Origin: an uncultured Ignavibacteriota bacterium
GTDB lineage: Bacteria > Bacteroidota > Ignavibacteria > UBA10030 > UBA8401
Assembly: GCA_903861125.1 (NCBI GenBank)
Contig: CAIOTF010000014.1
Coordinates: forward strand, 54,497-118,496
Length of the DNA: 64,000 bases
Direction of reading: 5' to 3'
In this document: in pieces, positions 1-44,482 of the stretch
How the letters are laid out: every line of letters begins with the position of its first letter
Position numbering within the stretch: position 1 is the first letter of the stretch
Notes under the pieces: generated by a model
Seen by the model: the letters and a program-made list of their open reading frames with translations, nothing else
Database searches by the model: none
What the model was told of the DNA's origin: nothing
Made by a program: the position numbers and the translations under genes

Positions 1-2053
1 AATTTATAACCCGACCGATTTTTACGTTACTAGGGATGAGTTCACAAAGCGGATACCATTTTTAGATTCGTTGGGGAACATCTTTCCGGACCCGAATAAT
101 CCAGGTTTTCCTTATTACTCTGATGACCCGCGTTTGGGTTCAAATAGTTCGCCCTATTATTTCAATCCGCTCGGTCGAAAACTTACATATAGGAATTTCG
201 GTTTCGTTCAGGCTCCAACCATCGATAGGCTTGGAAAACCTTCAGGGGACAGTGCTTTAATTCCGCTGAACACAAGCCAATCCTATAATATCCAGGGAAA
301 TCTTGCGTATCGCTTATCTTCAACGATGCGTTTGAAATATGAAGTTGTCTACGATAATGCGGAAAGCAAAAGTGCGTCATATTATGCCTTCCGGTTCAAT
401 CCGGACGGTAGACCGACCAATTACAGTAATGGCCTCGTTCAGGCATTGGATTGGACGCATACATTAAGCAATTCCATGTTCTATACTATCAAACTTTCTT
501 CCGGATACAGTGAAGATAAAACGTATGCGTATGAAAATATCAATGATCCTCGCTACCTTCCTGCATTCTACCAAACGACATTGCCGATCGTCGGATTTTA
601 TACCGGCGGTGTTTCGCTCGGCAGAACATTCCGCACATCGCAATCAAATGGCGGGAAGATCGATCTGCAGGCGCAATTGTTCGGCGATCATGAAGTGAAA
701 GTAGGAGCCGAAGTACGTCTTCATACCATTAAACTGGAATCGTACGATCTTGAATTTTACGATGTGAATAATCCAAGCCGCATCGTGGATGATTTTCAGG
801 ATGTGTACAGCGACAGTATAAAATATGCTGCCCGTAAACCTGACGTGAAATCAGGATATATAAATTTCGAGAAAACACCGAAACAGATTTCGATGTATGT
901 TCAGGACAAAATCGAACTTGAAAAATCGCTGATACTGAATGTCGGATTGCGGTACGAATATTTTGATCCGGCATCGAAGTTCAATCCGAAATTAAGCGAT
1001 GCACTTTCTGCCCGTGACACCACATTCCTTACCAAAGATCTTGTCAACGCAGAAGTGAAACACACATTCAGCCCTCGTATCAGCATCGCGTATCCGATTA
1101 CTGATCAAGGAGTGATCCGGTTCTCCTACGGTCACTTTTATCAGCTTGGCAATCTGTCATCACTGTATACAAATTCAAATTTCCGCGTGGCAGGTTCACA
1201 GCCGATTTTTGGAAACGCAGATGTAAAACCGCAGCGAAGTGTTCAATATGAAATAGGTCTTCAACAGGGATTAACGCCTGATCTCCGGTTGGAGGTTGTC
1301 GGGTTCTACAAAGATGTCCGCGATTATATCTTCAGGCAAATCGTCGTTACGGCAAAAGGGGATATCTCATACGAAGTATTGACCAACTTGGATTATGCGA
1401 ATTCACGCGGTCTTACAGTTTCTCTTTATCAAAGAAGAATGCCGGGAAGCATTTTCTCTTCTTCGATTGATTATACGTTCTCTGTAGCGGAGGGGAATAG
1501 AACAGAACCACGTGCCGACTTTTTCTTCAGCGAAAAGTCTGGAAAGAGTGCGGAAACATTTCTTGTCCCTCAGAGTTTCGACAGAACACACATCCTGAAT
1601 ACGACGATGAATTTCAGCGAATCTGATAATTACTCCGTAAGTCTTATCAGCCGTATGCAATCCGGCGCGCCGTATACTGCAAGTATTCCTGCCAGTCTTG
1701 CAACACAGCTTTCGCAGTTCATTCAGAACAGTTCAGTAAAGCCGTTCCAATGGTCCGTTGATGTGAAGATGGAAAAATATATTATGTTCGGTGGTTTCCG
1801 GTATTCATTATTTGTGCAAGTGGATAATCTTTTCGATACACGAAGCGAAACCGATGTGTACTCGAACAGTGGTAAAGCATTATATAATGCAAATCAAGTG
1901 GCAAATCCGAAGGAGTTTCAGGATATCCGACATAGGATAACCAATGGTGATCCCGGCATGATTCCGTTATCAGCTGTCGATAATTATTATATGAATCCCC
2001 AAAATGTCAGTCGTCCGCGCTTAGCTCGCTTCGGCTTTTCAGTACTTTTTTAA
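1..2053 (+). CDS. Outer-membrane beta-barrel protein, probably the C-terminal part of a TonB-dependent receptor; the 5' end is truncated by the window edge
   Basis: The frame is open from nt 2 with no stop, and the first in-frame start candidate is TTG at 71. The alternating amphipathic beta-strand pattern and the C-terminal ...RFGFSVLF ending in Phe are the usual barrel signature. The gene lies directly upstream of a large surface protein, as in receptor/cargo loci. Confidence 0.5.
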   Translation, partial: IYNPTDFYVTRDEFTKRIPFLDSLGNIFPDPNNPGFPYYSDDPRLGSNSSPYYFNPLGRKLTYRNFGFVQAPTIDRLGKPSGDSALIPLNTSQSYNIQGNLAYRLSSTMRLKYEVVYDNAESKSASYYAFRFNPDGRPTNYSNGLVQALDWTHTLSNSMFYTIKLSSGYSEDKTYAYENINDPRYLPAFYQTTLPIVGFYTGGVSLGRTFRTSQSNGGKIDLQAQLFGDHEVKVGAEVRLHTIKLESYDLEFYDVNNPSRIVDDFQDVYSDSIKYAARKPDVKSGYINFEKTPKQISMYVQDKIELEKSLILNVGLRYEYFDPASKFNPKLSDALSARDTTFLTKDLVNAEVKHTFSPRISIAYPITDQGVIRFSYGHFYQLGNLSSLYTNSNFRVAGSQPIFGNADVKPQRSVQYEIGLQQGLTPDLRLEVVGFYKDVRDYIFRQIVVTAKGDISYEVLTNLDYANSRGLTVSLYQRRMPGSIFSSSIDYTFSVAEGNRTEPRADFFFSEKSGKSAETFLVPQSFDRTHILNTTMNFSESDNYSVSLISRMQSGAPYTASIPASLATQLSQFIQNSSVKPFQWSVDVKMEKYIMFGGFRYSLFVQVDNLFDTRSETDVYSNSGKALYNANQVANPKEFQDIRHRITNGDPGMIPLSAVDNYYMNPQNVSRPRLARFGFSVLF

Positions 2054-2060
2054 ATAGATC

Positions 2061-5000
2061 ATGAACAAGGGAACTATTCGTATGAAGAAAAGTTTGTTAA
2101 TAACTCTTCTGGTTTTATTTTCAATAGCAGCATCACAGGAATCGAAGATCGACTTCCGCACTGCCGATATCAAATTTATGAATAAGCAGCAGCTGCGCGA
2201 ATTTCAGCGCTGGCGTGAAGACCAGTTCCGAATGATGAAATCGTCGGGCATGCAGTCCGAAGTGAAGAGTCTTGTAATTCAGGGAAATAAGATTCGTTCT
2301 ATTATTTACAACACAGGCGCCATCAGTAATCCCGGTGTTACAGGGAACGTGTTGGATCTTGTATGGAATGGTCTTGGCTATGGGTATGAGTTTGGTCCGC
2401 TCGTCACTTCCCGCGTTCCTCGGTCTGCTAATCCTAATGATTCAGTGAATATTGTTATTGACGGATTCGGAGGATCGAGTCGAAGCACAGCAGACGGTGA
2501 TTTTGCTCCCGATGGAGTTACCAAATGGGGCTGGCTGCCCAAAGGAGGGTATTCAGCGGCTGGACAAAATGATCTTGCCAGTTGGGGTGCACGAACATCT
2601 GACCTTCGAATCAAACCGAAATCGTGGCCGGAAACATGGTATAATTCCATTATAGGTGAATATATCTATCCTTCGTTCCTTGGTGGTAATGCAACAGTAC
2701 CGGATGAAGAAGTGTATTACGTTGTAGATGACTCAACGGATGCTGAATTTGATTATTTCCCGATGACAAGCAATACTGCTCATCGTGGACTTGGTATTAA
2801 TTTGGAAGTAAGGACATTTCAATTTGCAAATCCTTTGGCCGAAGATATTATTTTTCTTGTTTATACCGCAGAGAATGATCCAAAATCAAAAATGCTTCCA
2901 AAAGTCTATTTTGGTATGTTTGGCGACCCGCACGTTGGTGGTTATAATAATTTTGCAGATGATGCCGCAGAATTTATTCCTGCCCGCCCAATCGGTATTT
3001 CGGCATTTGATATGCGCTTGATACAGGACGGGAAAACAACTACTCCGTTGTCACGTAACATGGTGTATACATGGGATCCGGACGGCAAAAGTGATGTATC
3101 TACAATTGCGCCGGGATATTTTGGATATAAATTTCTGGAAAGCCCGAATAACAGCATTGATGGAATCGACAATGATGATGACGGTTTGAAAGATGAAAGT
3201 CCATATAATGACAAAGGAACTTTTATTGATGGTGTCAACGTCCCCTTAACAACTGGTATATTTGATACAACAAAATATATTGCATTGTATGGTACACCGA
3301 AACCGCGTTGGTCCGGTGATGAAGATGGAGATTGGGATAAAGAAAAGGATGACCTTGGCGTAGATGGAATTTTTGGGACCGGCGATTTCGGAGAAGGGAA
3401 CGGTGTCCCTGATCAATTGATAGGTCCAGACGGTTCATGGCTCGGTTCGGAACCGAACTTTGGATTCCGTGATGTTAACGAATCTGATCAGATCGGTTTG
3501 AGAAGCTTTTGGTCCTTGACCTTCGGCGGTAACAATCGTCCGAAAAACGATAATTTGATGTACAACAGTATTGTTGCACAATTCGATACGGCAGCACTTT
3601 CGACACTATATAGAACAGATCCGGCTAATCTTGGTGATTATATATTTCTCTATGGTTCAGGTCCGTTTGAAATGGATCCTGGTCATCGGGAGCGTTTTTC
3701 TATTGCACTGTTGATGGGGCAGGACCTTAAAGATCTTTTGTTGAATTCTGAGACAGCACAACTAGTACTGGCGGCAAACTATCGTTTCGCGCAGCCTCCT
3801 CCAAAACCAAAAGTAACAGCTGTGGCTGGTAACGGACGCGTAACATTATATTGGGATAATTCTGCCGAGAACGCGAGTGATCCGTTTTCCGGAAAAAAAG
3901 ATTTTGAAGGATATAAAATCTATCGCAGTCAGGACTTTACATTCAAAGATGTTTTCAGTATTACCGATGGCAACGGGTATGCGTTCCTGGGCAAAGCATT
4001 GTATGATCAGCAGGCAAGGAAATCAGCATTGTGGCATCGTCCTTGGACAAAAGCTGAACAGGATAAATATCTCGGTGGGTTTATGCCGGTGGAATATCGC
4101 GGACGCTACATAAAATATTATATGGGTGAACCGAGCGATGCATCGGGTATTCTGCATGAGTATGTCGACTCGACCGTTACCAACGGAATCAACTATTATT
4201 ACGCCGTTGTATCGTTCGATCACGGTGACGACAGTCTCCAACTTCCGCCGTCTGAAAGCCAGTCGATCATTCAGCGTGATGCCGTTACGCAGGAATTCAA
4301 ATTTGATGTGAACACAGTTTCCGTCGTGCCGAATTCCGAAGCAAAAGGTCTTGTCAGTACAAAGTCAGAACTGCAAAACGGAATGTCTCTCACTCATCCA
4401 AAAGGAGCCGGTACTGGGAGCATTCATTTTAAGGTATTGAACGAATTAGCACTGACAAACGGACAGTATAAAGTAACATTTGCAAAGACGAAGGTTGGGT
4501 CTGATACGGTTATTTCCTACAGCATCCTCAGAACTACTCCAGCTGTTGAGCATGTCACTGGTAACGAAAATTTATTTATTAATTTGCAGAATAAAAATTT
4601 TGTTTCGTCCAGCGTAAAGATATATGACGGTGCCGATACCACGGCGCCGCTCGTTGCCTCCACGTCGATCTTTGCTGATTCTGCTAATGGGAGACTACGG
4701 GCAACGGCAACAGGAGTTTTATTGCGAACAAAGACCTATACCGTAGCATATCAATATTATCCTGTTGCGAACAGTAGCTATTATAAAGCGAATGATTCCA
4801 ATCCGGTATTCGACGGTATCCGAACATATTTCATAGACGATTCGCTGATGCTGGACGGGACAAACACGGGATTCACCTCGAAAGCTAACTCGGATAGTAT
4901 GTCGGTAAATATTTCTTCTACTTTCTCCACATTGAAAAATAAACTGCATCCGATCGATTATAAGATAACGTTCATGTGCACTACCGCTGATACGAATGCA

Positions 5001-5702
5001 AGCGGTAATTACAGCGCACCGGCGGATTCGTTTGTTTCGTCTGCAACATTCCCATCGGCGAATAAAGCTTATGTGAAAACGCCATTCAAAGTGGAGAACG
5101 TTACCGACACAACCAAATTGACGATCATCATCCAGGACAAAACGGGACCGTTGAATAAGGCCGGACGATGGGACCTTGGTGAAGAAATTATTATAATGGA
5201 ATTGGCGACGCCTGTTTTACAATCAAAAATATTCCATAATATATCGATAACAAAGAAGAGCAGCGTGCTCAATTATGTAATACAGGCAGGCTCTGTCTTT
5301 AATATCAAAATGAAAAAACCTTTTAATGTGAATGATGTATTCGGATTCACAACCAAAGCGATGACGTACAATGCAGCGATTGGTGATCAGCAGCTGCAGA
5401 ATATAATTGTTGTACCGAATCCTTATGTGATCAGTAGTGCATTCGAATTACCGTCGAACAGACCTGATTTACGAGGGGATAGAGCCCTTCAGTTCAGAAA
5501 CCTTCCGAAGGAATGCACGATCCGTATCTACACTATCACAGGGGAATTGGTACAGACACTACGAAAAAATGATAACACTTCATATATGAACTGGGACCTT
5601 CTTTCATCTGAAAGCGCTCGTGTCGGGTATGGTGTTTATATTTATCATATTGAAACGCCGACCGGCGGTACGAAGATCGGTCGTCTTGGAATCATTAAAT
5701 AA
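2061..5702 (+). CDS. Large secreted cell-surface protein (1213 aa) with a type A T9SS C-terminal sorting domain; function unknown
   Basis: N-terminal signal peptide MKKSLLITLLVLFSIAASQ. Acidic DGIDNDDDGLKDE, which is Ca-binding-like. The last ~80 aa (VVPNPYV...IRIYTITGELV...GVYIYHIETPTGGTKIGRLGIIK) fit a Por secretion tail. Confidence 0.65.
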   Translation: MNKGTIRMKKSLLITLLVLFSIAASQESKIDFRTADIKFMNKQQLREFQRWREDQFRMMKSSGMQSEVKSLVIQGNKIRSIIYNTGAISNPGVTGNVLDLVWNGLGYGYEFGPLVTSRVPRSANPNDSVNIVIDGFGGSSRSTADGDFAPDGVTKWGWLPKGGYSAAGQNDLASWGARTSDLRIKPKSWPETWYNSIIGEYIYPSFLGGNATVPDEEVYYVVDDSTDAEFDYFPMTSNTAHRGLGINLEVRTFQFANPLAEDIIFLVYTAENDPKSKMLPKVYFGMFGDPHVGGYNNFADDAAEFIPARPIGISAFDMRLIQDGKTTTPLSRNMVYTWDPDGKSDVSTIAPGYFGYKFLESPNNSIDGIDNDDDGLKDESPYNDKGTFIDGVNVPLTTGIFDTTKYIALYGTPKPRWSGDEDGDWDKEKDDLGVDGIFGTGDFGEGNGVPDQLIGPDGSWLGSEPNFGFRDVNESDQIGLRSFWSLTFGGNNRPKNDNLMYNSIVAQFDTAALSTLYRTDPANLGDYIFLYGSGPFEMDPGHRERFSIALLMGQDLKDLLLNSETAQLVLAANYRFAQPPPKPKVTAVAGNGRVTLYWDNSAENASDPFSGKKDFEGYKIYRSQDFTFKDVFSITDGNGYAFLGKALYDQQARKSALWHRPWTKAEQDKYLGGFMPVEYRGRYIKYYMGEPSDASGILHEYVDSTVTNGINYYYAVVSFDHGDDSLQLPPSESQSIIQRDAVTQEFKFDVNTVSVVPNSEAKGLVSTKSELQNGMSLTHPKGAGTGSIHFKVLNELALTNGQYKVTFAKTKVGSDTVISYSILRTTPAVEHVTGNENLFINLQNKNFVSSSVKIYDGADTTAPLVASTSIFADSANGRLRATATGVLLRTKTYTVAYQYYPVANSSYYKANDSNPVFDGIRTYFIDDSLMLDGTNTGFTSKANSDSMSVNISSTFSTLKNKLHPIDYKITFMCTTADTNASGNYSAPADSFVSSATFPSANKAYVKTPFKVENVTDTTKLTIIIQDKTGPLNKAGRWDLGEEIIIMELATPVLQSKIFHNISITKKSSVLNYVIQAGSVFNIKMKKPFNVNDVFGFTTKAMTYNAAIGDQQLQNIIVVPNPYVISSAFELPSNRPDLRGDRALQFRNLPKECTIRIYTITGELVQTLRKNDNTSYMNWDLLSSESARVGYGVYIYHIETPTGGTKIGRLGIIK

Positions 5703-5722
5703 AAACCTGGAGAACTGGCTCA

Positions 5723-6756
5723 TGAAATTTGCTATTCGTTTATCGGTAATCGTACTTGTTCTCGCTACGGTACATGTTGCCTCTGCGCAGATCAGCAGAA
5801 CGACAACAAAAGTAGGGACGACTGTAGCGCAGTTCCTTAAAATCGGGGCCGGTGCGCGTGCCGTTGCAATGGGAGGCAGCGCTGCCGCAATGGATGGGGA
5901 TGTTTATTCCATTTACTGGAATCCTGGTTCTCTTGCCCGTCTTAAAACGCCCGGAGAAGCTTCGTTCAATCATACTCAGTGGCTCGCCGACATCAACTAT
6001 AACTATGCAGCTGCCGGTTTAACGATTGATGGCGTAGGAACACTCGGACTTTCTGTAACGTCGGTCACTATGCCTGAAGAAATTGTCCGGACTGAAATCA
6101 ATCCAGAGGGTGACGGACGTCGGTGGAGCTATAGCGCATTCGCTATGGGACTTTCTTTTGCCCGATCCTTAACAGACAGATTTTCGATCGGATTCACGAC
6201 TAAATATGTTCATGAAGGTATTTGGAATATGGCTGCTTCCGGATTTGCTTTCGATATTGGAACGATCTATACGACCACGTTCAATGGTTTGAAAATCGGT
6301 GCTAGTATTTCCAATTTCGGAACAAAAATGAGACTAGACGGACAGGATATTTCGTTCAATAATTTCCCGACAGGTGAACAGGGTCAAGGTCCGCAAAATA
6401 TCCAATCGTTATATAAAACAGAAGCGTATGATATTCCATTACAATTCCGCATCGGTTTTGCGATGGATGTACTGAATATGGATGTCATTCGGGCTACGGC
6501 TTCGGTCGATGCAACGCATCCGAACGATAACGTGGAATACGTAAATTCGGGTATGGAATTGGCATACGATGAAATGTTCTTTGCCCGCGTGGGATATAAT
6601 TCAATGTTCAATGAAAATTCCGAACAGGGATTAACCTGGGGTGTTGGTATGTATTTCCAGGTGACAAATCTCAACGGCATTAAAGTTGATTACGCATTTG
6701 CCGACCAGGGACGTCTCACTAATGTGCAATATGTTTCAGTGAGTGTGACCTACTAA
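5723..6756 (+). CDS. FadL/TodX/PorV-like outer-membrane beta-barrel protein (possible T9SS PorV/PorQ-family shuttle)
   Basis: The ATG at 5723 gives a clean signal peptide MKFAIRLSVIVLVLATVHVASAQ, whereas the ORF-track start at 5620 overlaps the upstream gene. The N-terminal motif GAGARAVAMGGSAAAMDGDVYSIYWNPGSLA resembles the FadL-family consensus (G-L-G-R-A-x-S-G-E-A-A...N-P-A). The C-terminus is aromatic-rich. Confidence 0.5.
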
Positions 6757-6781: not shown

Positions 6782-6826
6782 GACCTTGCAGAGAATAATT
6801 CTTTGCAAGGTCTTTTTATTTTAAGT
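6782..6826 (+). terminator. Rho-independent terminator downstream of the barrel gene
   Basis: Hairpin gaccttgcagag...ctttgcaaggtc followed by tctttttatttt. Confidence 0.5.
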
Positions 6827-7197
6827 ATGATCATAAAAGTATTGCACGTTAGCACACGTCCGGGAAACTAGATAAGAATTCTATCATCATTAGTATTACG
6901 TCTGGCACAGTGTCTTATTCTCTAATGGGCATATACCTTGATGTTTGTCTGAAGCACTTCTTCGTGGCGTTGAAATATAAATCATTATGCCGAACTTGTT
7001 TCAATTTTCGGAATCCACACTCCGGACCCCGAAATGCTTCTGTGCGGCATGCCGTATGAAGAGACAAGTTCAGTATGAGGCAGCAAATACACCGCAGCAT
7101 GTCTGTTGGACCACCTCGTGGAGTTGTGGTGATGATGTATTCAATTGTTTTGAATAGTGCCTATAAGTTCAGATCTCATAAAACATGCACAAAAGAT

Positions 7198-7232
7198 CAA
7201 AAAAAAACCTGAGTTCATCACTCAGGTTTTTT
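7198..7232. terminator. Bidirectional intrinsic terminator
   Basis: An A9 run, then cctgagt-tcatc-actcagg, then a T6 run. It reads as a hairpin plus U-tract on both strands and sits 3' of the minus-strand gene that ends at 7251. Confidence 0.55.
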
Positions 7233-7250
7233 ACGGTAAACATGAAAATA

Positions 7251-9161
7251 TTATTTAACCATTAACATTTTAATGTTCTTCTCAACGTTACCGGCCTTCA
7301 TTGTTGCAATATAAGCACCCGTTGCAACCGTTTTGCCGCTCTTATCTTTTCCATTCCATGTAACATTGTGCGAACCTTTTGCATACTCTTCATTGTTTGC
7401 CAATGTTACAACTTCCTTGCCGAGCATATCATAAACGCGTAAAGAAATTTTCTTGGTCAAGGGGAGAACAAAATTGATTGTTGTCGACGGGTTGAACGGA
7501 TTCGGGAAATTCTGATTCAACTCGTAATCGTCCGGAGTGATCACTGTAAGATCTTTCGTGGAGACCGATCCTACGACATCTGCTTCTAACGATCTGATGA
7601 TCCATTTCTTAGCGTTGGTCACATTCTTTGATGAATCCACGACGAATGCCTGTGTATTAATGTCGAATTTCTGCCAGGAATATGTCGTTGAATCTATCAA
7701 CGCCTGATAAGGAAGAATAACTTCCATCTTGCCATCACCATCAACATCCATTGGTTTGGACATTTTTGATACAAAACCTTCACCGAGTGTTTTTACTGTA
7801 TCCTTAATTCCCATAGAATCACGATAACTAACTGTTGCAAGAATATCAGCTTCGCCTTTATAATACACTTTGCGGATGTAACTTGACGAGTCTCTCAGTG
7901 AACCGGTCCCTTTATATTCAATGGCAACCACATTACTGGGATACGATGAACCAACAAGGATCTCTGATTTTCCATTTCTGTCGAGGTCAGCGACAACACC
8001 GGTAAAATTAGACATTCCTACACCCGACGTTGTTTGAGCAACTTTCGCTGCTATACGGACTGCATGTGTCGAATCAGATTTCTGAACATTATCGCTGGTG
8101 TTATAGTCAACAACATACATAGCACCGTCAAGATCACTCAAACCGCCATACAGAGGAAAATACACTTCAAAATTTTTATCCTTGTCAAGGTCTGCAACTA
8201 CTCCGCCGAATAATGCAACATAATCATTACCGGGGGTCATTTGATAATATTGATTGTTATTTACCGGAGCTGTAGTGTCCGGCATAACATACGTATCCGG
8301 TCCGGTTACTTTTATTACCCAATAATCAGAAAAATTCCAATTATGGCAGACAATTTCCATTTTCCCGTCGCCATTAAGGTCGGCAGGATGAACGGCATAC
8401 GGAGATCCGCCGCCGAATTTAGAACTCGCCATCAGGAGTGAACTTCCTTCAATTTCAAATGTTGCGAAACCCTGACTTTCGAAATCCCATCCGCCGACAG
8501 CATGGATAATCAGAAAATCATCATTTGCAGATCCTGTAACATTTTTGGGTGTCAATAATTCCTGTTGTCCGTCACCGTCAACATCGGTTACTTCAAACTG
8601 TTCTACCGTCAGTTGCAGACCAATTTCAACCGGTGTTCCTGCCCGCGTACCGAAATTTGCACCATACGCAACAGTATTTGATATCATTGCTGAAGGAACT
8701 TTTCCAAATTTGTGGCTGCCATTGACACCGTCCCATTCAAAAATTAGGATACCGCCCGCTGTACCGGCGCGGGGGAATATAATTTCGCCTCTACCATCGC
8801 CATCCATATCGCCTGAGCGGATAGTTCGTGGAGTTGAACTGCCTCCAGCACCATACGGAAGACCTGCCAGGGTATCTAAACGCGGAGAAGACCAAATCCA
8901 TTCCAATGTATCGTTTCCTGCTGCCTGGAAGACGTGAACACGACCAGTTTTAGTATAATCAGTTATAATAATTTCAGGTTTTCCATCGTGGTCGAGATCG
9001 GGAGCGACCCAGCATCCGCGGACACCAATATCGCCGAAATATGCACTGTCAGGTTTAACAAACGTCTTTTTTGGAACAAATTTTGCGCCTACGTGGGTCT
9101 GACCGAAGGCAAACGCCGCGACCAAGATGGATAAAAAAATCAGTATATTTGTTCTTTTCAT
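7251..9161 (-). CDS. Secreted protein with FG-GAP/integrin-like repeats and a type A T9SS C-terminal sorting domain
   Basis: Signal peptide MKRTNILIFLSILVAAFAFGQ. At least 7 repeats of the D-x-D/N-x-D-G-x-x-E-I/L Ca-binding FG-GAP motif (DLDHDGKPEII, DMDGDGRGEII, DVDGDGQQELL, DLNGDGKMEIV, DLDRNGKSEIL, DVDGDGKMEVI). C-terminal NFPNPFNPSTTINF...LRVYDMLGKEV...GAYIATMKAG matches a Por_Secre_tail. Confidence 0.7.
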   Translation of the reverse strand: MKRTNILIFLSILVAAFAFGQTHVGAKFVPKKTFVKPDSAYFGDIGVRGCWVAPDLDHDGKPEIIITDYTKTGRVHVFQAAGNDTLEWIWSSPRLDTLAGLPYGAGGSSTPRTIRSGDMDGDGRGEIIFPRAGTAGGILIFEWDGVNGSHKFGKVPSAMISNTVAYGANFGTRAGTPVEIGLQLTVEQFEVTDVDGDGQQELLTPKNVTGSANDDFLIIHAVGGWDFESQGFATFEIEGSSLLMASSKFGGGSPYAVHPADLNGDGKMEIVCHNWNFSDYWVIKVTGPDTYVMPDTTAPVNNNQYYQMTPGNDYVALFGGVVADLDKDKNFEVYFPLYGGLSDLDGAMYVVDYNTSDNVQKSDSTHAVRIAAKVAQTTSGVGMSNFTGVVADLDRNGKSEILVGSSYPSNVVAIEYKGTGSLRDSSSYIRKVYYKGEADILATVSYRDSMGIKDTVKTLGEGFVSKMSKPMDVDGDGKMEVILPYQALIDSTTYSWQKFDINTQAFVVDSSKNVTNAKKWIIRSLEADVVGSVSTKDLTVITPDDYELNQNFPNPFNPSTTINFVLPLTKKISLRVYDMLGKEVVTLANNEEYAKGSHNVTWNGKDKSGKTVATGAYIATMKAGNVEKNIKMLMVK

Positions 9162-9340
9162 TGTAGCTCCTAAATGATGAAAGATGATGTGGATTGTTGT
9201 TTCATACCGTAGTGTTACATCATTGCCTTAAAAATAGTCAAACTCTTATAGTGAATCAAGATTTCTATTGAATATTTTATCTTCATTTATTTGAATTGTG
9301 AGGGTTATTTGGTATTTTTTGATACATATTATGGATATGA

Positions 9341-10369
9341 GTGAATAAAGAATCGGTTTTTCATACTGTAAAGAATCTATTACTGATCAAACCCCGTGCC
9401 ATCGGAGATATTCTTCTTTCTACGCCAGTTATCAAGAATTTGAAAATTCAATTTCCAGATATTCAGATTGACTTCCTGTGTGAAAATTTTGCCCTTGATG
9501 TTGTTATGGGGAATCCCTATCTGCGAGAGGTGTTGGCGTTTGATAAAAAAAAGGATTCAACAGTATCGGTAATCAGTCGCATTCGTCAAAAAAAATACGA
9601 TATGGTAATCGATCTTTTTAGTAACCCGCGAACAGCACTGATGACCCGGTTCAGCGGTGCAAAACACAGGGTAGGTTTTCCATTCAGGGGACGTGCCTAC
9701 GCTTATAATATCCATATATCTCCTCGTGGTGGCGAAGTCCACAATATTGATTTTAACCTTGATGTGTTGCGTCATTTTGGTTTGACTATTGAGGATCCCC
9801 GGCCGGATTTTTTTGTTGGCAGTAGAGAGGATTTAACGGCGCAGACTTGGTTCAAAGAGCGTAATTTCTTGCCTGGTAGTATTGTCGGGATCAATCCAAG
9901 CGGAGGGTGGTATACAAAAAAATGGAATTCTGATTCATACGCACGCTTAGCTGACCGGATTATTGTGAATGATAAAAAGAATATAGTATTCTTCTGGGGT
10001 CCGGGAGAATATGACGATGTTCAAAAAATACGCGAGCAGATGATTCACAAGAGTGAAATAATTCCAAAAACCAACTTAAAAGAAATGGCTGCATTCCTTC
10101 AATCATGTACATATCTAATCAGCAACGATTCTGGCCCGATGCATATCGCCGCATCACTTGGCGTTCCAACGCTTGGTATCTATGGACCGACAAATCCTTA
10201 TTTGCAAGGCCCGTATGGAAAAAATAACCATTGGGTAAGACATGAAGCATTGGATTGCTTGGAATGTAATCTTACCGAATGCCCGATCGGTAATGTCTGT
10301 ATGAAAGACCTTTCTGTAGATACAGTGTATAATGCTTATCAACTGATCAAAAATATTAATTCGAAATAG
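9341..10369 (+). CDS. Glycosyltransferase family 9 (ADP-heptose:LPS heptosyltransferase-like)
   Basis: Motifs LLIKPRAIGDILLSTPVIKNLK and C-terminal SNDSGPMHIAASLGVPTLGIYGPTNP are typical of the RfaF/WaaC/WaaQ family. GTG start. Confidence 0.75.
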   Translation: MNKESVFHTVKNLLLIKPRAIGDILLSTPVIKNLKIQFPDIQIDFLCENFALDVVMGNPYLREVLAFDKKKDSTVSVISRIRQKKYDMVIDLFSNPRTALMTRFSGAKHRVGFPFRGRAYAYNIHISPRGGEVHNIDFNLDVLRHFGLTIEDPRPDFFVGSREDLTAQTWFKERNFLPGSIVGINPSGGWYTKKWNSDSYARLADRIIVNDKKNIVFFWGPGEYDDVQKIREQMIHKSEIIPKTNLKEMAAFLQSCTYLISNDSGPMHIAASLGVPTLGIYGPTNPYLQGPYGKNNHWVRHEALDCLECNLTECPIGNVCMKDLSVDTVYNAYQLIKNINSK

Positions 10370-10370
10370 T

Positions 10371-11525
10371 ATGGCAAAAAAAATAATTCGTAAGAAAAAA
10401 TCGTCAAAAAAACTTTTCATCCCCGATTGTAAACGGTTTACTGGATACAAACCGTGCTTTCCCGGGACGGCTTGTTATAAAGAATGTGTAGATCATCAGC
10501 CCATCGGGAAGAAAATACTCATTGTAAATTTAGATGCTATGGGGGCTGTAGTGCAAACAACTGCGATGCTTCCTGCAATTAAAAGAAAATATCCTAATAG
10601 TCATATCTCATGGATTACGCTGAAAAATTCGTACCGTTTGCTTGATAATAATCCGCTGCTCGATGCCGTATACGTGTGGGAACCGGAAAATTGGCTCATC
10701 CTTCAGCAGATTGAATTCGACGTTGTTTACCAAACGGACAAAACGAAACGGTCGTGTGCCTTCGGAAATACTCTGAAAGCAAAGGAAAAGATAGGTTTTG
10801 GACTGAATAAAAGCGGTCAGATCGTTCCCTTGAACAAAGAAGCCGAATACAGCTACATTCTTGGTCTTGATGACGATCTGAAATTCCATAAAAACGAACA
10901 ATACGGCACTCAGATTCTCCAGGAATCGATGAAATTGAAATTCAAAAGAGACGAGTACATTCTTGAATTGTCTGCGGAAGAGAAACAATTCTGTGACAAC
11001 TATAAGAGCGAAAACGGTTTGAACAACGGAGATCTGATCGTTGGGTTCAATACCGGATGCTCATATCTCTATCAGAACAAAAAAATGACGATTGATCAGC
11101 ATGTACAATTGATCAATACAATGTATTCACTGAAGGGTATCCGGCTGGTGATAGTCGGCGGACCCGAAGATACGGAACGAAACGCAGAGATCGTCAGAAG
11201 GGTTGGGGAGAAGGTTTTAAGCACGCCAACGACTGAAGGAGTGCGCAGAGGAATCTGTTACGAAAATATCTGCGATGTAATTATTACCGGTGATTCGTTC
11301 GGCATGCATGTTGCCATAGGACTGAAAAAACAAGTTATCGCATGGTTCGGTTTAAGCTGCTGGAACGAAATTGACGTGTACGATCGTGGAATTAAACTTA
11401 TTCCTACGGGATTGTTTTGTGCACCATGCTGGAAAAAACAATGTCCGCATAATCTGGAATGTATCTCAATGATTGATCAACACGTCATTGTCTCAGAAGT
11501 GAAACGGATGGCGGCAAAAAAGTAA
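10371..11525 (+). CDS. Glycosyltransferase family 9 (heptosyltransferase-like) with extra N- and C-terminal cysteine clusters
   Basis: KILIVNLDAMGAVVQTTAMLPAIKRKYPNSHISWIT and ITGDSFGMHVAIGLKKQVIAWFG place it in GT9. The N-terminus has C-x8-C-x5-C-x3-C and the C-terminus has C-x2-C-x4-C-x5-C. Confidence 0.7.
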   Translation: MAKKIIRKKKSSKKLFIPDCKRFTGYKPCFPGTACYKECVDHQPIGKKILIVNLDAMGAVVQTTAMLPAIKRKYPNSHISWITLKNSYRLLDNNPLLDAVYVWEPENWLILQQIEFDVVYQTDKTKRSCAFGNTLKAKEKIGFGLNKSGQIVPLNKEAEYSYILGLDDDLKFHKNEQYGTQILQESMKLKFKRDEYILELSAEEKQFCDNYKSENGLNNGDLIVGFNTGCSYLYQNKKMTIDQHVQLINTMYSLKGIRLVIVGGPEDTERNAEIVRRVGEKVLSTPTTEGVRRGICYENICDVIITGDSFGMHVAIGLKKQVIAWFGLSCWNEIDVYDRGIKLIPTGLFCAPCWKKQCPHNLECISMIDQHVIVSEVKRMAAKK

Positions 11526-11572
11526 TTCTTTAAAATCACGACCGGTCAACCTTCCTCAGATGATCGGAATGA

Positions 11573-12058
11573 TCACGGCTTTACCCCTTTTTCCAAAAGG
11601 TAATCTGGAAATTTTTTCTTCTCGTATTGATTTTCCGCAATAAAACTCAACACATAGATGAACCTGCCTGGCTCAATGTAACCGGGTAGCATGGTGATAG
11701 CTTCGCCATTGCTTTTCAGGAACAGTGTTGCAGGATAACCGGTAATGCTCATCCCTTGCACGAAGTCAGATGGTCTCATCTTATGTCCTGAATAGGTTAT
11801 TGTGTCTTTGGCTTCTGCATTTAATTTGATGATAACAAAATTCTTTTCAAGATATTCCGTTATGTGCTTGTCGGAATATGTTTTGGAATCCATGGTCTTA
11901 CACCAGGTGCACCAATCCGTATACACATCTATCAAGATCTTTTTCCCGGAAATTCTTGCTATGTTTAATCCTTCATCGAATTTATTCCAACGAGGGGTTT
12001 TTGCGACTGACATAGTTGAGATGAAGAGCACAAGCAGAATAAGCAGAGTTTTTTTCAT
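11573..12058 (-). CDS. Periplasmic thioredoxin-fold thiol:disulfide oxidoreductase
   Basis: Signal peptide MKKTLLILLVLFISTMSVA and the WCTWC (CxxC) active-site motif. It is the last gene of the long minus-strand operon. Confidence 0.65.
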   Translation of the reverse strand: MKKTLLILLVLFISTMSVAKTPRWNKFDEGLNIARISGKKILIDVYTDWCTWCKTMDSKTYSDKHITEYLEKNFVIIKLNAEAKDTITYSGHKMRPSDFVQGMSITGYPATLFLKSNGEAITMLPGYIEPGRFIYVLSFIAENQYEKKKFPDYLLEKGVKP

Positions 12059-12097
12059 AATGATTGTTGTTGAGGATAAATAAAAAAGTGAAAATAA

Positions 12098-13132
12098 TTA
12101 ATTTCCATTGAACGATTGCTGCAAAATCATGTCAATACGCGAAAGAACCGAGCCGATAGGAATCTCATCAAATGTACACATTTTTGGATCGCCGGGACAT
12201 CGCTGCTGGCAAAATCCTGCGGTCGGTTCTATCACTTCCGATCTGTTTCCAAGTGAACCCCACAATTTTGACGAACAAGCAGGAAGAGGACAAAACATTG
12301 TTACTGTGGGTACTTTTAATGCGGCAGCAATATGCTGTGTACCGGTGCTGGATGAGACCAACACTGAAAGCATGCTGCAGAGTGCAATCAATTCCCGAAG
12401 GTCGCTACCCGAATAGACAATATGCTTTTTTTTGAATTGTTCGAATTGGTTCTCCATATGAGTGTTTGCAACACCAATATTGATGAACAATTGGTGTCGA
12501 TCTGAGAGTTTTTCGCACAGATTTACATATTGTTCAGGTTTCCAGTTCGGCACTGAATTATTTGAACTGGGATTGATACCAATAACCGGTTTATCCGGAT
12601 CGAAGCCTCGTTCAGCCAAAAAATTCTTCGCGTGTTCTTTTTCTTCGTTAGTGACAAATAATTCTGTTGCGATATCATCGACAGTTATGCCGATCTTTCT
12701 GCCAAGATCCATCACATAGTCAGCCTCGTGACGAAGAGGAATGTATTTATTTCTGCTCACTGTTTTTGTTCCGGTGAGGATCTGATAAATTTTTCCACCA
12801 ACCCCGATCCGCTGTTGTATTCCTGCAAGGAACATCATCCATGCATGCCGTTCACGCGGTAGCGGCATTAGTCCTGTATCGAACTTCAGCGAACGCAGAT
12901 GAGCAACTTGATTCCAAAACCCCTTTCTTCCAGAATTAGCACCGTGCGGATCGTCGGTAATCAGAAGGTCAATGTTAGGGTTATTCTTAAGCAAAACGCC
13001 TGAAACTGAATTTACCATCACACCGACAAAGGAATTCGGAAACGATTGTTTCACAGCGCGGATGAGAGGAGTTGTGAGAACAACATCACCGATACGGTCC
13101 GGACGGATGATAAGAATTCGGCGTGGTGTCAT
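12098..13132 (-). CDS. Glycosyltransferase family 9 (heptosyltransferase-like)
   Basis: RILIIRPDRIGDVVLTTPLIRAVKQSFPNSFVGVMV and VSSSTGTQHIAAALKVPTVTMFCP. Confidence 0.75.
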   Translation of the reverse strand: MTPRRILIIRPDRIGDVVLTTPLIRAVKQSFPNSFVGVMVNSVSGVLLKNNPNIDLLITDDPHGANSGRKGFWNQVAHLRSLKFDTGLMPLPRERHAWMMFLAGIQQRIGVGGKIYQILTGTKTVSRNKYIPLRHEADYVMDLGRKIGITVDDIATELFVTNEEKEHAKNFLAERGFDPDKPVIGINPSSNNSVPNWKPEQYVNLCEKLSDRHQLFINIGVANTHMENQFEQFKKKHIVYSGSDLRELIALCSMLSVLVSSSTGTQHIAAALKVPTVTMFCPLPACSSKLWGSLGNRSEVIEPTAGFCQQRCPGDPKMCTFDEIPIGSVLSRIDMILQQSFNGN

Positions 13133-14160
13133 TGCAGAACTTGTTTATAGACAGCAAGTGTTTTTTCTGCTACGGTGCTCCAAAGGAATTCCTTTTTAAT
13201 ATGTTCTCTGAGGGCCGAAGTCTTTTGAGCATTCAACGCATGTATAATGCCATTCCTGATCGATTCTACGGAACGCGGTTCAACATAAACCGCATGTGAT
13301 TCGAAATAATCTTTGGTGCCGCCGTACGGAGTGATAACAATCTTTGCTCCGGCAAGTGCTGCTTCGAGAGCCGCAATACCGGGTGTCTCAAAAAGAGAAG
13401 GAAGGGCGAAAACACTGCATGCTGCATATGCCGAGGCAAGCATTTCTGAATCGTTCTCAAGTCCGTCAATGAGGAGAATGTTCTTCGAAAGTTTTGTCTC
13501 TTCCAGACATTGTTTTCCTTCGGAAGTTCCTGAGATTTTTCCGATGATGACTGCCGGATGATCGACATTTTTTAACGCTTTGATGAGTTGAAGTACATTC
13601 TTTCGTGCGGGACCGATATGACCGACATTAAGAATGAAATTATCGATGCCGTATTTTTTTTTGAACAAAGAAGGATCACCGTGTTCAAAGCGTGCTTCAA
13701 CTCCGTTGGGCACAACCGATATCTTTCCGGGTGCAATACCTAATCCGTTACCAAGCAGTGTTGCCTCATCACGCGTATTCGGCAGAACTGATTTAGACCA
13801 ATTGCAAATCTGCTGCGTATAATCATAACTCGTCCAGATACCGGATTTGAAATGTTTCAAAGTCTTTGATATCCCGAGGATCGTCCGGATATATGCCGGA
13901 GAATGCTCGGTGAAAAAAATCGATGAACTTACGAAGGGAATATTGAAATTATTCATTACACTTGCCAAATGAAATGTTCCCAGGTTAGCCGAGAATAGAT
14001 GAACGAGATCGCACGATGTGCGGTCAAACTGTTCCCACGGATGGAAAAGGGAGACATGTACGCCGAGTTTTTCCAGTTCATTCTTTGTTTGCAGGATCTG
14101 GACACGCGGTCCGCCATGCAGCAGGGATAATGATTGATATGTTGCAAAAGTTATGTTCAT
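13129..14160 (-). CDS. Glycosyltransferase family 4 (GT-B, group 1)
   Basis: C-terminal E-x7-E region ETPGIAALEAALAGAKIVITPYGGTKDYF. There are 4-nt overlaps with both neighbouring genes. Confidence 0.7.
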   Translation of the reverse strand: MNITFATYQSLSLLHGGPRVQILQTKNELEKLGVHVSLFHPWEQFDRTSCDLVHLFSANLGTFHLASVMNNFNIPFVSSSIFFTEHSPAYIRTILGISKTLKHFKSGIWTSYDYTQQICNWSKSVLPNTRDEATLLGNGLGIAPGKISVVPNGVEARFEHGDPSLFKKKYGIDNFILNVGHIGPARKNVLQLIKALKNVDHPAVIIGKISGTSEGKQCLEETKLSKNILLIDGLENDSEMLASAYAACSVFALPSLFETPGIAALEAALAGAKIVITPYGGTKDYFESHAVYVEPRSVESIRNGIIHALNAQKTSALREHIKKEFLWSTVAEKTLAVYKQVLQ

Positions 14161-15680
14161 TCAGTAGTCTTTATCCACCAATCAAGTGCATTCTGAAGTA
14201 TATGACGTGCATCGAATGTGCGGGAACTCATAATATTTTTAGGTGATTCTATCTCTCTTTTGACCATGGTGAAGGAAACTTTGTTCAAATCAATTTTCCC
14301 ATTGATGCTGATGATTGCTTCACTGAGATCAGGTAAAATGATACGGCAGTAAGTGTCACCCGACGAAGATTCTATCGTTCCGTCTGAAAATCTTAATTGT
14401 GGAAGCGTTGAAGACCGTTGTTTCCACCAGTCTGAATATTGTGTATACGAAAGTTTCAGAATATTTCGCTCGTTAATATAACGAAAAACTTCTTCAAAGA
14501 CTCCGTTGTGTTCATGCGTGGGGTGATGATACAGACAGATCGGTTCGTTTAGCAGTATGTTTGTATCGATCACAGTCCGGTAATGTGCCGCCATTTCCTC
14601 ATCGCTCATCCGGGCGCGAAGCATCGTCCCGATACAGACCGGATGGATGGGGAGCTGCGGGAACGGTAGAAACCGGTTCTTCATGAACGGATATGAAGGG
14701 AGATTATCGTAATCATATGCAAATTCGGATGAATATTGAAATCCGAGCGACTCAATAGCCTCTGCATATTCTTTGTTCCATTCACCTGTGGGTGCTGTAA
14801 TGCCCTTTGGATTCAGATTGTTCTTACGGAGAAGCATAAGTGCTTTTTCGAAATTCTCTCTGTTCAATATTGTGCTGCGGTGCAGCAGATGTTCATAACA
14901 ATGAACGCCGATCTCCTGGTGCTCGAATTTTTTGAAATAGGGAAGCCACGATTCATGGCTTTTTACGTCCAGGAACCATGTGGTTGGAATATAGTGGCGC
15001 TCGCTCAACTGATAGATCTGTTCGATCTGACTTTGCGTACCCTTGTCTGAATCGATCCTCATCGTGAATACAGTCGGTTCGGAATCGGGGTAATACCATT
15101 GATGAACAAAGGGCATCTGTTGAAGATGATGAAGTTTCTGTATTAGAGAAAAGATCAGTTGTCTTAGCGTGCCTTTGCTGCGCAAGGCCACAGTTTCGTT
15201 GGGCATTCTTCCGGTATTTCGGTAGAAATTATTTCTTTGCGAATTAGTAGAGATAGCCACATTGATATCTATCCCAAGGTATGCTTTCCATCCATCGCCG
15301 AATGGTTCAACGTCGGCAAAGTCGTTATTATGGAAAAAAGAAACGCGGGAAAACAAATCAAGGATGCCGTTGAATTGGTAGAGATCATTTTTTGATGGCG
15401 GTAAAGAGCGAACGAATGATTTCGATACGGTCCTGTCATCTACTGCATTTACAGAATTCGTTGTATACAACACGGATCCGCCGCGGCGAACAAAATCCTC
15501 TAAACTAGTTTGCAGGAACGTATCCATTGTGCCGTTGACAATGATAACGGAAAAATCATTCAGCAGGTTAGAACCATCTGACACAACAGAAAAAGGAATG
15601 CCGATCTGGCGTAAGACCAATTCCCAGACCGGTTCGTAACGAACCAACCCGATCTGCATTATGAAAGGATTATTTCGCAT
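14157..15680 (-). CDS. Hypothetical protein with a divergent polysaccharide-deacetylase-like (CE4/NodB-fold) signature
   Basis: Loose matches to CE4 motifs: RIDSD, HCYEH (an H-x3-H), and LYHHPTHE. It sits between two GT4 genes. The similarity is weak. Confidence 0.35.
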   Translation of the reverse strand: MRNNPFIMQIGLVRYEPVWELVLRQIGIPFSVVSDGSNLLNDFSVIIVNGTMDTFLQTSLEDFVRRGGSVLYTTNSVNAVDDRTVSKSFVRSLPPSKNDLYQFNGILDLFSRVSFFHNNDFADVEPFGDGWKAYLGIDINVAISTNSQRNNFYRNTGRMPNETVALRSKGTLRQLIFSLIQKLHHLQQMPFVHQWYYPDSEPTVFTMRIDSDKGTQSQIEQIYQLSERHYIPTTWFLDVKSHESWLPYFKKFEHQEIGVHCYEHLLHRSTILNRENFEKALMLLRKNNLNPKGITAPTGEWNKEYAEAIESLGFQYSSEFAYDYDNLPSYPFMKNRFLPFPQLPIHPVCIGTMLRARMSDEEMAAHYRTVIDTNILLNEPICLYHHPTHEHNGVFEEVFRYINERNILKLSYTQYSDWWKQRSSTLPQLRFSDGTIESSSGDTYCRIILPDLSEAIISINGKIDLNKVSFTMVKREIESPKNIMSSRTFDARHILQNALDWWIKTTE

Positions 15681-16653: not shown

Positions 16654-16664
16654 GAAAGATCAGT

Positions 16665-20899: not shown

Positions 20900-20901
20900 A
20901 T

Positions 20902-20932
20902 CAAAAAAAAACCGAGGACTTTATCCTCGGTT
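20902..20932 (-). terminator. Intrinsic terminator for the upstream minus-strand operon that ends with the M50 protease
   Basis: On the minus strand the sequence reads ccgagga-uaaag-uccucgg followed by U9. The U-tract ends 3 nt before the ATG of the lipoprotein gene. Confidence 0.5.
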
Positions 20933-21070
20933 AGAATAAAGCAATCTGCAATTAAAAAGTTGTTCGCAAAAATTTGTATCGGAATCTAATGTATCGAACT
21001 TTTCTATGGCAGACTGCAATTGTTATTGAATTCTTTAACAATAATAATAAAATTTTGTTTGAGAGTCAAA

Positions 21071-22003: not shown

Positions 22004-22006
22004 AAT

Positions 22007-43099: not shown

Positions 43100-44482
<1,383 letters not shown>

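Follow-up and report, generated by a model that had tools for sequence, protein, structure and literature searches.

The window, a 64,000-nt stretch of DNA from an uncultured Ignavibacteriota bacterium, begins with three genes on the same strand, and its list of open reading frames confirmed all three as the original prediction had given them (Table 1). The first ORF (2..2053, +), which is open from the window edge, encodes a barrel of the TonB-dependent-receptor type (Pfam TonB_dep_Rec_b-barrel, E 1e-29); this fragment ends with FSVLF and also matches OMP_b-brl_4 (E 2e-22). The second ORF encodes a protein of 1213 aa, whose predicted signal peptide was found to be a cleavable Sec signal without a lipobox. 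The spacing between these two genes, previously put at 8 nt, measured 7 nt to the ATG at 2061, or 28 nt to the ATG at 2082, the codon of M8, which is the likely true start according to the orthologues and gene call P0001 and gives a protein of 1206 aa. The third gene, likely starting at 5722 and ending at 6756, encodes the expected FadL/PorV-like barrel and is followed by the expected strong terminator at 6782-6812, whose 14-bp stem contains 6 GC pairs and precedes TTTTTATTTT with its T run. No conservation outside the same genome was detected in the 389-nt non-coding gap at 6813-7201. A canonical T9SS cargo gene lies 495 nt from the triad and encodes an FG-GAP protein (FG-GAP_3, E 2e-23) that scored 29.4 bits against TIGR04183, over the cut-off of 23.

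Table 1. Features at the start of the window, with positions in the window
Feature	Position	Strand	Basis
TonB-dependent receptor, C-terminal 683 codons of 984 aa	1..2053	+	Pfam barrel matches
Large secreted surface protein	2061..5702	+	ORF, orthologue starts, homologues
Large protein, N-terminal domain: galactose-mutarotase-like beta-supersandwich with long acidic loop insertions (predicted)	2316..3803	+	
Large protein, FN3/Ig-like beta-sandwich with insertion (predicted)	3804..4340	+	Model secondary structure, Foldseek, conservation
Large protein, variable middle beta-sandwich region (predicted)	4341..5399	+	Model, low identity, swaps in relatives
Large protein, C-terminal domain homologous to the T9SS type-A sorting domain	5400..5699	+	
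PorV/PorQ-family outer-membrane barrel, 344 aa	5722..6756	+	NF033709
Intrinsic terminator closing the three-gene unit	6782..6822	+	Stem-loop and T run
FG-GAP repeat protein with canonical T9SS type-A sorting domain	7251..9161	-	FG-GAP_3, TIGR04183

The receptor and the PorV-like barrel

The upstream extension that had been proposed as a check recovered the N-terminus of the receptor. Contig L001 comes from the same genome as the window (1 mismatch in 15,702 nt); it carries the complete receptor gene at 7018-9972, and the window begins at its position 7920. The 301 N-terminal residues encoded upstream of the window comprise a signal peptide, a CarboxypepD_reg domain, a TonB-box-like motif and a Plug domain. 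Against the full receptor, Plug matched with E 3e-11, CarbopepD_reg_2 with E 3e-20 and TonB_dep_Rec_b-barrel with E 2e-29, so that a Plug domain is followed by a 22-strand-type barrel, the arrangement that defines a TonB-dependent transporter. The motif VELNEFIVEG between the CarboxypepD_reg domain and Plug resembles, by eye only, the Bacteroidota ExVVV(T)G box. The full receptor scored 66.1 bits against the SusC/RagA family model TIGR04056 (cut-off 368.25), with a match confined to residues 28-161, which form the N-terminal extension, and its orthologues scored 75-83 bits. With a receptor outside the SusC family, the locus falls outside the definition of a PUL. The protein adjacent to the receptor gave no Pfam or NCBIfam match to SusD/RagB, and its fold is beta-rich, with no lipobox. 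Since one SusCDE operon has been reported in the Melioribacter genome (PMC3534657), "without SusD" holds for the locus and not for the lineage.

The PorV-like barrel scored 208.9 bits against NF033709 (cut-off 90) over residues 33-343, and its paralogue upstream of the window scored 220 bits. It fell below the equivalog cut-offs of NF033710 (PorV; 90.9 bits against 250), NF033711 (PorQ; 85.2 against 220) and NF052325 (PorV2; 93.4 against 325). To judge from these profile scores, it is a member of the family, yet no orthologue of PorV, PorQ or PorV2. Its sole sequence relative in the PDB is PorV of F. johnsoniae (6h3i_F, E 1.3e-10).

Domain structure of the large surface protein

The large protein has more than 1317 full-length homologues, every one named hypothetical. 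For the module, representative clusters number 7641 at E <= 0.001 and 946 at E <= 1e-30, likewise all annotated as hypothetical. Neither Pfam nor NCBIfam offered a usable family, and a PDB sequence-profile search returned nothing at E <= 1. One match, to the phage tail tube model NF052337 (E 5.5e-4; 19.5 bits against a cut-off of 60), was dismissed as a chance beta-sandwich match. A lipobox is present in 4 of 95 family members.

The acidic DxDxDG motifs had been predicted in the plural. We identified an acidic stretch, with 22.5% D/E against 11.3% for the whole protein, which holds a single strict DxDxDG (DNDDDG, aa 370-375, nt 3168-3185) and one DxDxD at aa 420. The columns D-x-D-x-D-G-x-x-D-E are invariant across 96 sequences from two paralogue families, and the acidic loop insertions of the N-terminal domain probably bind Ca. 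E85, E192, D198/D199, R226, Q229 and R307 are also invariant.

The full-length AF2 model was weak (pTM 0.43), below what a global fold comparison or a domain arrangement needs, and with it Foldseek returned generic Ig/FN3 arrays plus PorZ only; the N-terminal domain was therefore modelled alone with the 96-sequence alignment. This model matched solved galactose-mutarotase-like supersandwich domains, and carbohydrate-active enzymes stood almost exclusively at the top of the match list. The remote-homology search that had been suggested thus gave a predicted fold typical of carbohydrate-active enzymes. In most of the top matches the supersandwich is a non-catalytic accessory domain beside an (alpha/alpha)6 barrel. 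The fold does not prove sugar binding, because YidC P1 and amine oxidases also carry it. Compared with the supersandwich domains of GH94, GH15, GH65, GH116 and galactose mutarotase, the modelled domain shows 6-14% identity, gives no Pfam match and adds about 300 residues of acidic loop insertions, and it is not followed by an (alpha/alpha)6 catalytic domain.

The FN3/Ig-like domain, with the motifs VTLYWD...DFEGYKIYRS...YYYAVVS, is kept throughout the superfamily, including the distant set A3, at 52% identity among distant orthologues. The beta structure of the middle region was modelled well (block pLDDT mostly 80-92), while its identity among distant orthologues is just 26%, and in distant relatives Reg_prop beta-propellers stand in its place. 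A variable or swapped middle between constant ends is the pattern expected of a specificity module.

A T9SS sorting domain had also been predicted, and a homologous domain is indeed present at the C-terminus (aa 1114-1213), though its TIGR04183 score stayed under the cut-off of 23 (18.1 bits for the full-length protein, 22.4 bits for the isolated domain); PF18962 gave no match to the large protein. By hhalign, the domain aligned with 38 canonical sorting domains of neighbouring cargo genes from the same loci (96.4%, E 1.5e-9) over all 75 columns. It carries a 16-residue insertion after strand 1 and is the most conserved part of the large protein. Its model has seven strands in an Ig-like 3+4 beta-sandwich at the extreme C-terminus of a protein with a Sec signal, the arrangement that defines such domains, and PorZ is a recurring structural match. 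We conclude from these alignments that the domain is of type-A sorting-domain ancestry. It scored best against the tails of PorU and PorZ, which are reported as the two retained sorting domains (PMC10202324), and by analogy it would be retained rather than removed. The evidence for T9SS in the window genome is indirect and consists of cargo genes, not core genes; many further cargo genes were found in related loci.

Linkage, duplication and gene neighbourhoods

Conservation of the adjacency had been set as a check, and the three genes stand together almost without exception. Among the evaluable loci of Ignavibacteria genomes, the receptor lies directly upstream in 71/71 and the PorV-like gene directly downstream in 68/68, on the same strand. 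Frameshifted or split ORFs occur in L046, L134 and L143, whose receptors are present by tblastn and HMM; L046 is counted as receptor-bearing in the 71/71 on this basis. Among loci collected from metagenomes with distant relatives as seeds, the receptor was found in 65 of 66 and the PorV-like gene in 71 of 72. At five loci the gene order is permuted to receptor, PorV-like gene, large protein, yet all three genes are kept, indicating that the linkage outlasts rearrangement. The arrangement is far beyond chance, since it recurs in about 160 loci, those of related lineages not being independent observations, and it spans Ignavibacteria, Marinimicrobia and relatives. We found no description of this triad in the literature; it is an undescribed outer-membrane module.

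The triad also duplicates as a whole unit. A second triad stands in tandem upstream of the window copy, with protein identities of 31%, 34% and 45% and no strong terminator between the two; an inverted duplication was found in L003 and L040-L044, and genomes carry multiple diverged copies. Pairwise distances among the three proteins correlate (r 0.92-0.94, 110 triads), a correlation confounded by the species phylogeny. Clade agreement is high between the large protein and the receptor and moderate at fine levels for the PorV-like barrel (ARI 0.34-0.5), and this comparison was not relied on.

The window copy adjoins LPS glycosyltransferases and housekeeping genes, and no CAZyme or regulator was found among its neighbours. 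Similarly, the Ignavibacteria orthologues have almost no CAZyme neighbours and stand by LPS heptosyltransferases, endonuclease III and similar genes; GT9 LPS-core heptosyltransferase genes adjoin not only the window copy but also 10 or more of the orthologous loci. Distant members have, on the same strand, a GH94 phosphorylase, a sugar ABC binding protein, LacI, or T9SS cargo with CBM20/48 or CBM9, with at least one such carbohydrate-type neighbour in 25 of 80 distant loci. The only homologue without a triad stands between an (alpha/alpha)6 GH and a GH2. Of 164 loci, 32 have a full-length homologue of the FG-GAP protein immediately beside the triad; 8 of these belong to the distant metagenome set, and in 3 of the 32 the homologue immediately precedes the receptor in the same orientation. 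The FG-GAP protein is possibly a loosely linked fourth component.

Proposed function and relation to known systems

We propose, giving it about an even chance, that the products of the three genes work as a single outer-membrane machine for the capture and import of a nutrient, for which an oligo- or polysaccharide is the most probable candidate. The large protein would pass first through Sec and next through the type IX secretion system. Its insertion-bearing C-terminal domain would stay bound to the co-encoded PorV/PorQ-family barrel, keeping the protein at the surface neither lipidated nor released, like PorZ held by PorQ and PorU by PorV; the evidence points to the barrel as the cognate holder of this domain and not a passive third member. 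The supersandwich, probably Ca-stabilised, and the variable beta-sandwich domains may bind substrate beside the TonB-dependent transporter, which would import it, and from this proposed position the large protein would take the role of the SusD/SusE-type lipoproteins of Bacteroidia PULs. Physical contact among the three proteins, a glycan as ligand and import through the receptor are what we infer. As for the substrate-capture or utilisation locus of the original prediction, the full receptor, the CAZyme-type fold, the conserved adjacency and the carbohydrate neighbours of distant members speak for it, while the window copy lacks CAZyme neighbours.

The same tripartite architecture might serve a non-glycan ligand, such as peptides or proteins, a metal or metallophore, or a cofactor, with the acidic Ca-type loops used for binding or stability. 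RagAB imports peptides or proteins; the best partial NCBIfam matches of the receptor are to haem, siderophore and B12 models, all far under their cut-offs; at one orthologous locus the flanking genes encode a Peptidase_S46, an MFS transporter and an M4 peptidase that carries a sorting domain; and the strongly conserved acidic motifs and the orthologue group of Ignavibacteria without CAZyme neighbours would fit as well. We nevertheless regard this reading as unlikely, given that the supersandwich matches carbohydrate-active enzymes almost exclusively among the top matches, that GH94, sugar binding proteins, LacI and CBM cargo recur beside distant members, and that iron- or haem-related genes were found beside none of the triads examined. 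It is rather improbable that the large protein is instead a surface enzyme (glycanase, lyase or epimerase) whose catalytic supersandwich feeds oligosaccharides to the transporter, and not a passive lid. The His of GDPHVGG is lost in the paralogue family (GMYGDVDVGG), no sequence-level match to GH, PL or epimerase families was found, and the supersandwich is mostly accessory in its top matches, with the (alpha/alpha)6 barrel absent here.

The large protein and the PorV-like barrel might also form a PorZ/PorQ-type envelope module for the cell's own surface glycan or LPS, acting in delivery, attachment or an S-layer-like coat, with the receptor-like barrel structural. PorZ is a two-propeller protein, and the parallel extends to glycan-type binding domains, a retained sorting domain and a cognate PorV-family barrel; the Reg_prop propellers of distant members, the recurrence of PorZ as a structural match of the C-terminus and the GT9 neighbours described above agree with it. 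However, a complete TonB-dependent transporter, with Plug and TonB-box-like motif, stands at nearly every locus and would have no role there; multiple diverged copies per genome and the catabolic neighbours of distant members also argue against it, and the GT9 neighbours, which occur in related Ignavibacteria alone, may reflect synteny by descent. We consider such a module improbable.

The proposed nutrient-uptake machine shares with the SusC/SusD PULs of Bacteroidia a TonB-dependent transporter with a carboxypeptidase-regulatory-like domain, a large surface-exposed partner and several diverged copies per genome; distant triads also share adjacent regulators, glycan-binding cargo and downstream genes for sugar catabolism or transport. 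In contrast, the triad receptor lies outside the SusC/RagA family, the partner is a non-lipoprotein without the TPR-like helical SusD fold and with a T9SS-type C-terminal domain, a PorV-family barrel is obligatory, and the window copy has no adjacent CAZymes. In the T9SS attachment complex of Porphyromonas gingivalis, PorQ holds PorZ, and PorV holds PorU, by a C-terminal domain that is kept (PMC10202324). The triad would share this binding of a surface protein's C-terminal domain to a PorV-family barrel, its retention being presumed, whereas its barrel is no PorV or PorQ orthologue, the N-terminal two thirds of its large protein are unrelated to PorU or PorZ, and it is tied to a TonB-dependent transporter and present in multiple copies. 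Similarly, in SprB-SprF and other pairs of Flavobacterium johnsoniae a cargo gene adjoins a dedicated barrel thought to be specific to that cargo (PMC10202324). SprB is a gliding adhesin with a type-B sorting domain and a PorP/SprF barrel; the triad is of type-A ancestry and the PorV/PorQ family, its unit contains a transporter and its cargo is no gliding adhesin. A FadL/PorV-like barrel also serves as membrane platform for a surface-exposed protein in BamG-BamH of the Bacteroidota BAM complex, where a 14-stranded barrel holds the protein and does not transport lipid (PMC12578637; PMC12611786). BamH differs in being a lipoprotein bound via its N-terminus in a BamA-based complex, without a T9SS-type domain or a TonB-dependent transporter.

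It is plausible, at somewhat less than an even chance, that the triad is the founding example of a phylum-spanning, unnamed class of outer-membrane machines for nutrient uptake in the FCB group outside Bacteroidia (Ignavibacteria, Marinimicrobia and others), whose parts are a TonB-dependent transporter, a supersandwich protein delivered by T9SS, and the private PorV paralogue that holds this protein. If so, evolution would have found an alternative to the lipoproteins of SusCD systems by recruiting PorV-family barrels and type-A sorting domains as a permanent, cargo-specific surface anchor of transport complexes, and this would be a third documented use of PorV-family barrels. Glycan foraging in Bacteroidia is explained by SusCD systems. 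SusD genes are few in their sister lineages, which are dominant in many sediments, in groundwater, in anammox reactors and in the dark ocean, and to our knowledge little has been described of how the TonB-dependent receptors of these lineages acquire substrates. A module annotated as hypothetical could fill this gap and would be a metagenome marker for carbon-substrate use. Ignavibacterium album and Melioribacter roseus are culturable, so the system is open to direct testing.

Gene anatomy of the triad and its tandem copy

We found that window 1-6756 is occupied by three ORFs on one strand, encoding the C-terminal part of a TonB-dependent receptor, a large secreted protein and a PorV-like barrel. 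The original prediction described these ORFs, their domain matches and the terminator correctly except for small details: the large-protein ORF does directly adjoin the receptor gene, but at a spacing of 7 nt instead of 8, and DxDxDG is present, but as a single strict motif. Another 19 nt separate the large-protein stop from the PorV-like gene. Orthologues and the public gene call (P0001) start the large protein at M8 (nt 2082), giving 1206 aa. The Pfam scan returned no family for it, and in the NCBIfam scan the PorV-like barrel scored far under the equivalog cut-offs of PorV, PorQ and PorV2. The non-coding gap behind the triad lies between convergent terminators; it was not conserved beyond contigs of the same genome and had no Rfam match.

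Features of the window, the complete receptor and two further loci (window positions unless stated otherwise)
Feature	Position	Strand	Description
Receptor fragment	open from window edge to 2053	+	683 residues; TonB_dep_Rec_b-barrel (E 1e-29), OMP_b-brl_4
Large protein ORF	ATG 2061	+	1213 aa; Sec signal peptide
PorV-like barrel	ATG 5722	+	344 aa; signal peptide; NCBIfam PorV/PorQ family 209 bits (cut-off 90 bits)
Terminator	6782-6812	+	14-bp stem, 3' of PorV-like gene
Non-coding gap	6813-7201		389 nt
Convergent terminator	7232-7202	-	
FG-GAP repeat protein	7251-9161	-	convergent neighbour; canonical T9SS sorting domain
Cell-envelope glycan cluster	9341-29320		three GT9 (heptosyltransferase-type) genes, DsbH-like thioredoxin, GT4/GT1-type transferases, several no-family ORFs
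No-family ORF	18489-20051	-	weak Sortilin-Vps10/BNR-type match only
SAM riboswitch RF00162	42760-42874	+	64.5 bits (gathering score 44.4)
Cys/Met-metabolism PLP enzyme gene	43139-44482		
Carboxypeptidase-regulatory-like domain	receptor 29-117		
Plug	receptor 128-224		
Upstream triad	L001 1-6917		receptor, 1211-aa protein, 338-aa PorV-like
L102 homologue	L102 3220-12622		packed between (alpha/alpha)6 glycoside hydrolase (GDE_C/GH94-like) and GH2

The upstream sequence was recovered from L001, a locus of the same genome, which from its position 7920 onward overlaps the window with 1 mismatch in 15,702 nt; P0001 was matched exactly on public contigs. This extension, which the original prediction had proposed as a check, yielded the receptor N-terminus. 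The complete receptor (984 aa) comprises a signal peptide, the expected carboxypeptidase-regulatory-like domain, a TonB-box-like motif (VELNEFIVEG), Plug and barrel, and falls outside SusC/RagA (TIGR04056, 66 bits vs 368, N-terminal extension only). Moreover, a second complete triad lies just 5' of this receptor gene, outside the window, with identities to the window copy of 31% for the receptor, 34% for the large protein and 45% for the PorV-like protein. No strong terminator was found between the two tandem triads. Tandem or inverted second copies were also observed in L003, L009, L011, L013, L040-L044, L085, L086 and L098.

Conservation of the linkage and extent of the family

A scan for motifs in one genome from each GTDB species identified 408 relatives of the large protein, of which the best 80 were used; these belong mostly to MAGs titled Ignavibacteria, Ignavibacteriales, Melioribacteraceae or unclassified Bacteroidota. 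Wherever these loci had enough flank, the large-protein gene was directly preceded by the receptor gene (71/71 loci) and directly followed by the PorV-like gene (68/68), all on one strand; these counts, like those of the metagenome set below, include related lineages and are not fully independent samples. A partial second triad was visible in 12 loci. A metagenome scan, seeded with an alignment of distant representatives (mean column identity 28%), some of which cluster with Candidatus Marinimicrobia proteins, returned 80 loci. Of the evaluable loci, 65 of 66 had the receptor and 71 of 72 the PorV-like gene; in five loci the order was permuted to receptor, PorV-like, large protein. Loci were chosen by motifs within the large protein only, so selection does not account for the conserved neighbours. 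Over 110 complete triads, pairwise distances for the three proteins correlated at r 0.92-0.94, which fits inheritance as one unit, although species phylogeny is a confounder; clade congruence with the large protein was high in the receptor's case and moderate in that of the PorV-like protein.

Full-length homologues numbered more than 1317 for the window protein and more than 957 for its upstream paralogue, every named one being hypothetical. Searching 1.84 billion representatives with a profile gave 7641 clusters at E <= 0.001, of which 946 reached E <= 1e-30. Many distant members keep profile positions ~60-790 and the C-terminal domain, with Reg_prop beta-propellers in place of the middle region, and some bear N-terminal extensions of ~290 aa (BNR/YCF48-like or DUF11), possibly gene-call fusions; P0255, P0259, P0266, P0286, P0128 and P0009 represent these distant or modular forms. 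Copies 57-81% identical occur in several MAGs (loci L006, L007, L009, L012, L028) whose titles read Chitinophagaceae, Chitinophaga pinensis, Synechococcus sp. or Acidobacteriota. Such names fit poorly with a distribution that is otherwise of Ignavibacteria type, and they look like mistakes of binning or taxonomic assignment.

Fold and C-terminal domain of the large protein

No sequence relatives of the large protein were found in the PDB or NCBIfam. Its full-length AF2 model was mediocre (pLDDT 69.6, pTM 0.43), beta-rich and multi-domain, with a terminal seven-strand sandwich. When mature residues 1-557 were modelled again from 96 sequences, confidence rose (pLDDT 84.3, pTM 0.84) and the result was a galactose-mutarotase-like supersandwich, ~300 residues of which are loop insertions rich in invariant Asp/Glu, including D-x-D-x-D-G-x-x-D-E. 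The modelled fold, also found in the YidC P1 domain and amine oxidases, suggests sugar binding without proving it.

The predicted T9SS sorting domain scored narrowly below the TIGR04183 cut-off of 23 bits (18.1 bits whole, 22.4 bits as isolated domain), but its homology was borne out by profile comparison. When 109 family C-termini were compared as a profile with 38 canonical type-A sorting domains taken from nearby cargo genes, the two profiles aligned end to end (96.4% probability, E 1.5e-9), the family having its own insertion of 16 residues behind strand 1. Among distant orthologues this domain is the most conserved part (60% identity; supersandwich 55%, FN3-like 52%, middle 26%), and even the most distant set retains its motifs. 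Such conservation is expected of a permanent protein-protein interface and not of a cleaved, discarded signal. Just 4/95 members have a lipobox, which indicates that the large protein is not lipidated. A 2023 review describes PorU and PorZ as the two T9SS components that keep their sorting domains; these remain attached to PorV and PorQ, and such domains may be shielded from cleavage by cognate PorV-like barrels (PMC10202324).

Genomic surroundings and proposed function

The FG-GAP protein lies directly beside the triad in 32/164 loci, eight of them in the distant set, in varying orientation (upstream, downstream, convergent, divergent, same strand), and could be a loosely linked fourth component. 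In this it resembles the VCBS/FG-GAP proteins found beside SusCD pairs in Bacteroidia. Past the window's FG-GAP gene come GT9 heptosyltransferases, whose proximity to the triad is common to at least 10 related loci, and then many glycosyltransferase genes in a long cluster and housekeeping genes; glycoside hydrolases were absent around the window copy. Elsewhere in the window, a SAM riboswitch precedes its PLP enzyme gene by ~265 nt, an ordinary arrangement. In the distant set, the genes that recur beside the triad on its strand encode a GH94 phosphorylase that itself contains a supersandwich domain (6 loci), sugar-type ABC binding proteins (6), LacI-family regulators (8), and T9SS cargo with CBM20/CBM48 (6-14) or CBM9 (3), and at least 25/80 distant loci have one or more such neighbours. 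In L102, the sole locus without receptor and PorV-like genes, an aldo-keto reductase and a PKD-domain protein come after the GH2.

The evidence best supports a three-part outer-membrane capture-and-import unit, in which we infer association of the proteins, retention of the C-terminal domain, ligand identity and import. The T9SS would deliver the large protein to the surface, where a private PorV/PorQ-family barrel would retain it via its uncleaved C-terminal domain; the Ca-stabilised supersandwich and variable specificity region would be displayed outside, and the TonB-dependent transporter would take in the substrate. The ligand may instead not be a glycan, the supersandwich may be enzymatic and not binding, with GH174 and mutarotases as precedents, or the triad may have a PorZ/PorQ-like envelope function. 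All three fit less well than capture and import: they give a poorer account of a complete TonB-dependent transporter linked in nearly every locus, taken together with catabolic neighbours.

The PUL-like reading of the original prediction holds in part: in function the capture-and-import unit would resemble SusCD systems in glycan capture, but the triad is not a PUL by membership because it has no SusC-family receptor and no SusD. The proposed anchoring follows the principle of the T9SS attachment complex and also resembles the way the BamG barrel serves as a platform (PMC12578637). Full-text searches found no description of the triad in the literature. We rate it as a combination of known kinds (TonB-dependent nutrient uptake, T9SS cargo and a cognate PorV-like barrel) and not as categorically new; it matters for its breadth of distribution and its testability in cultured Ignavibacteria.
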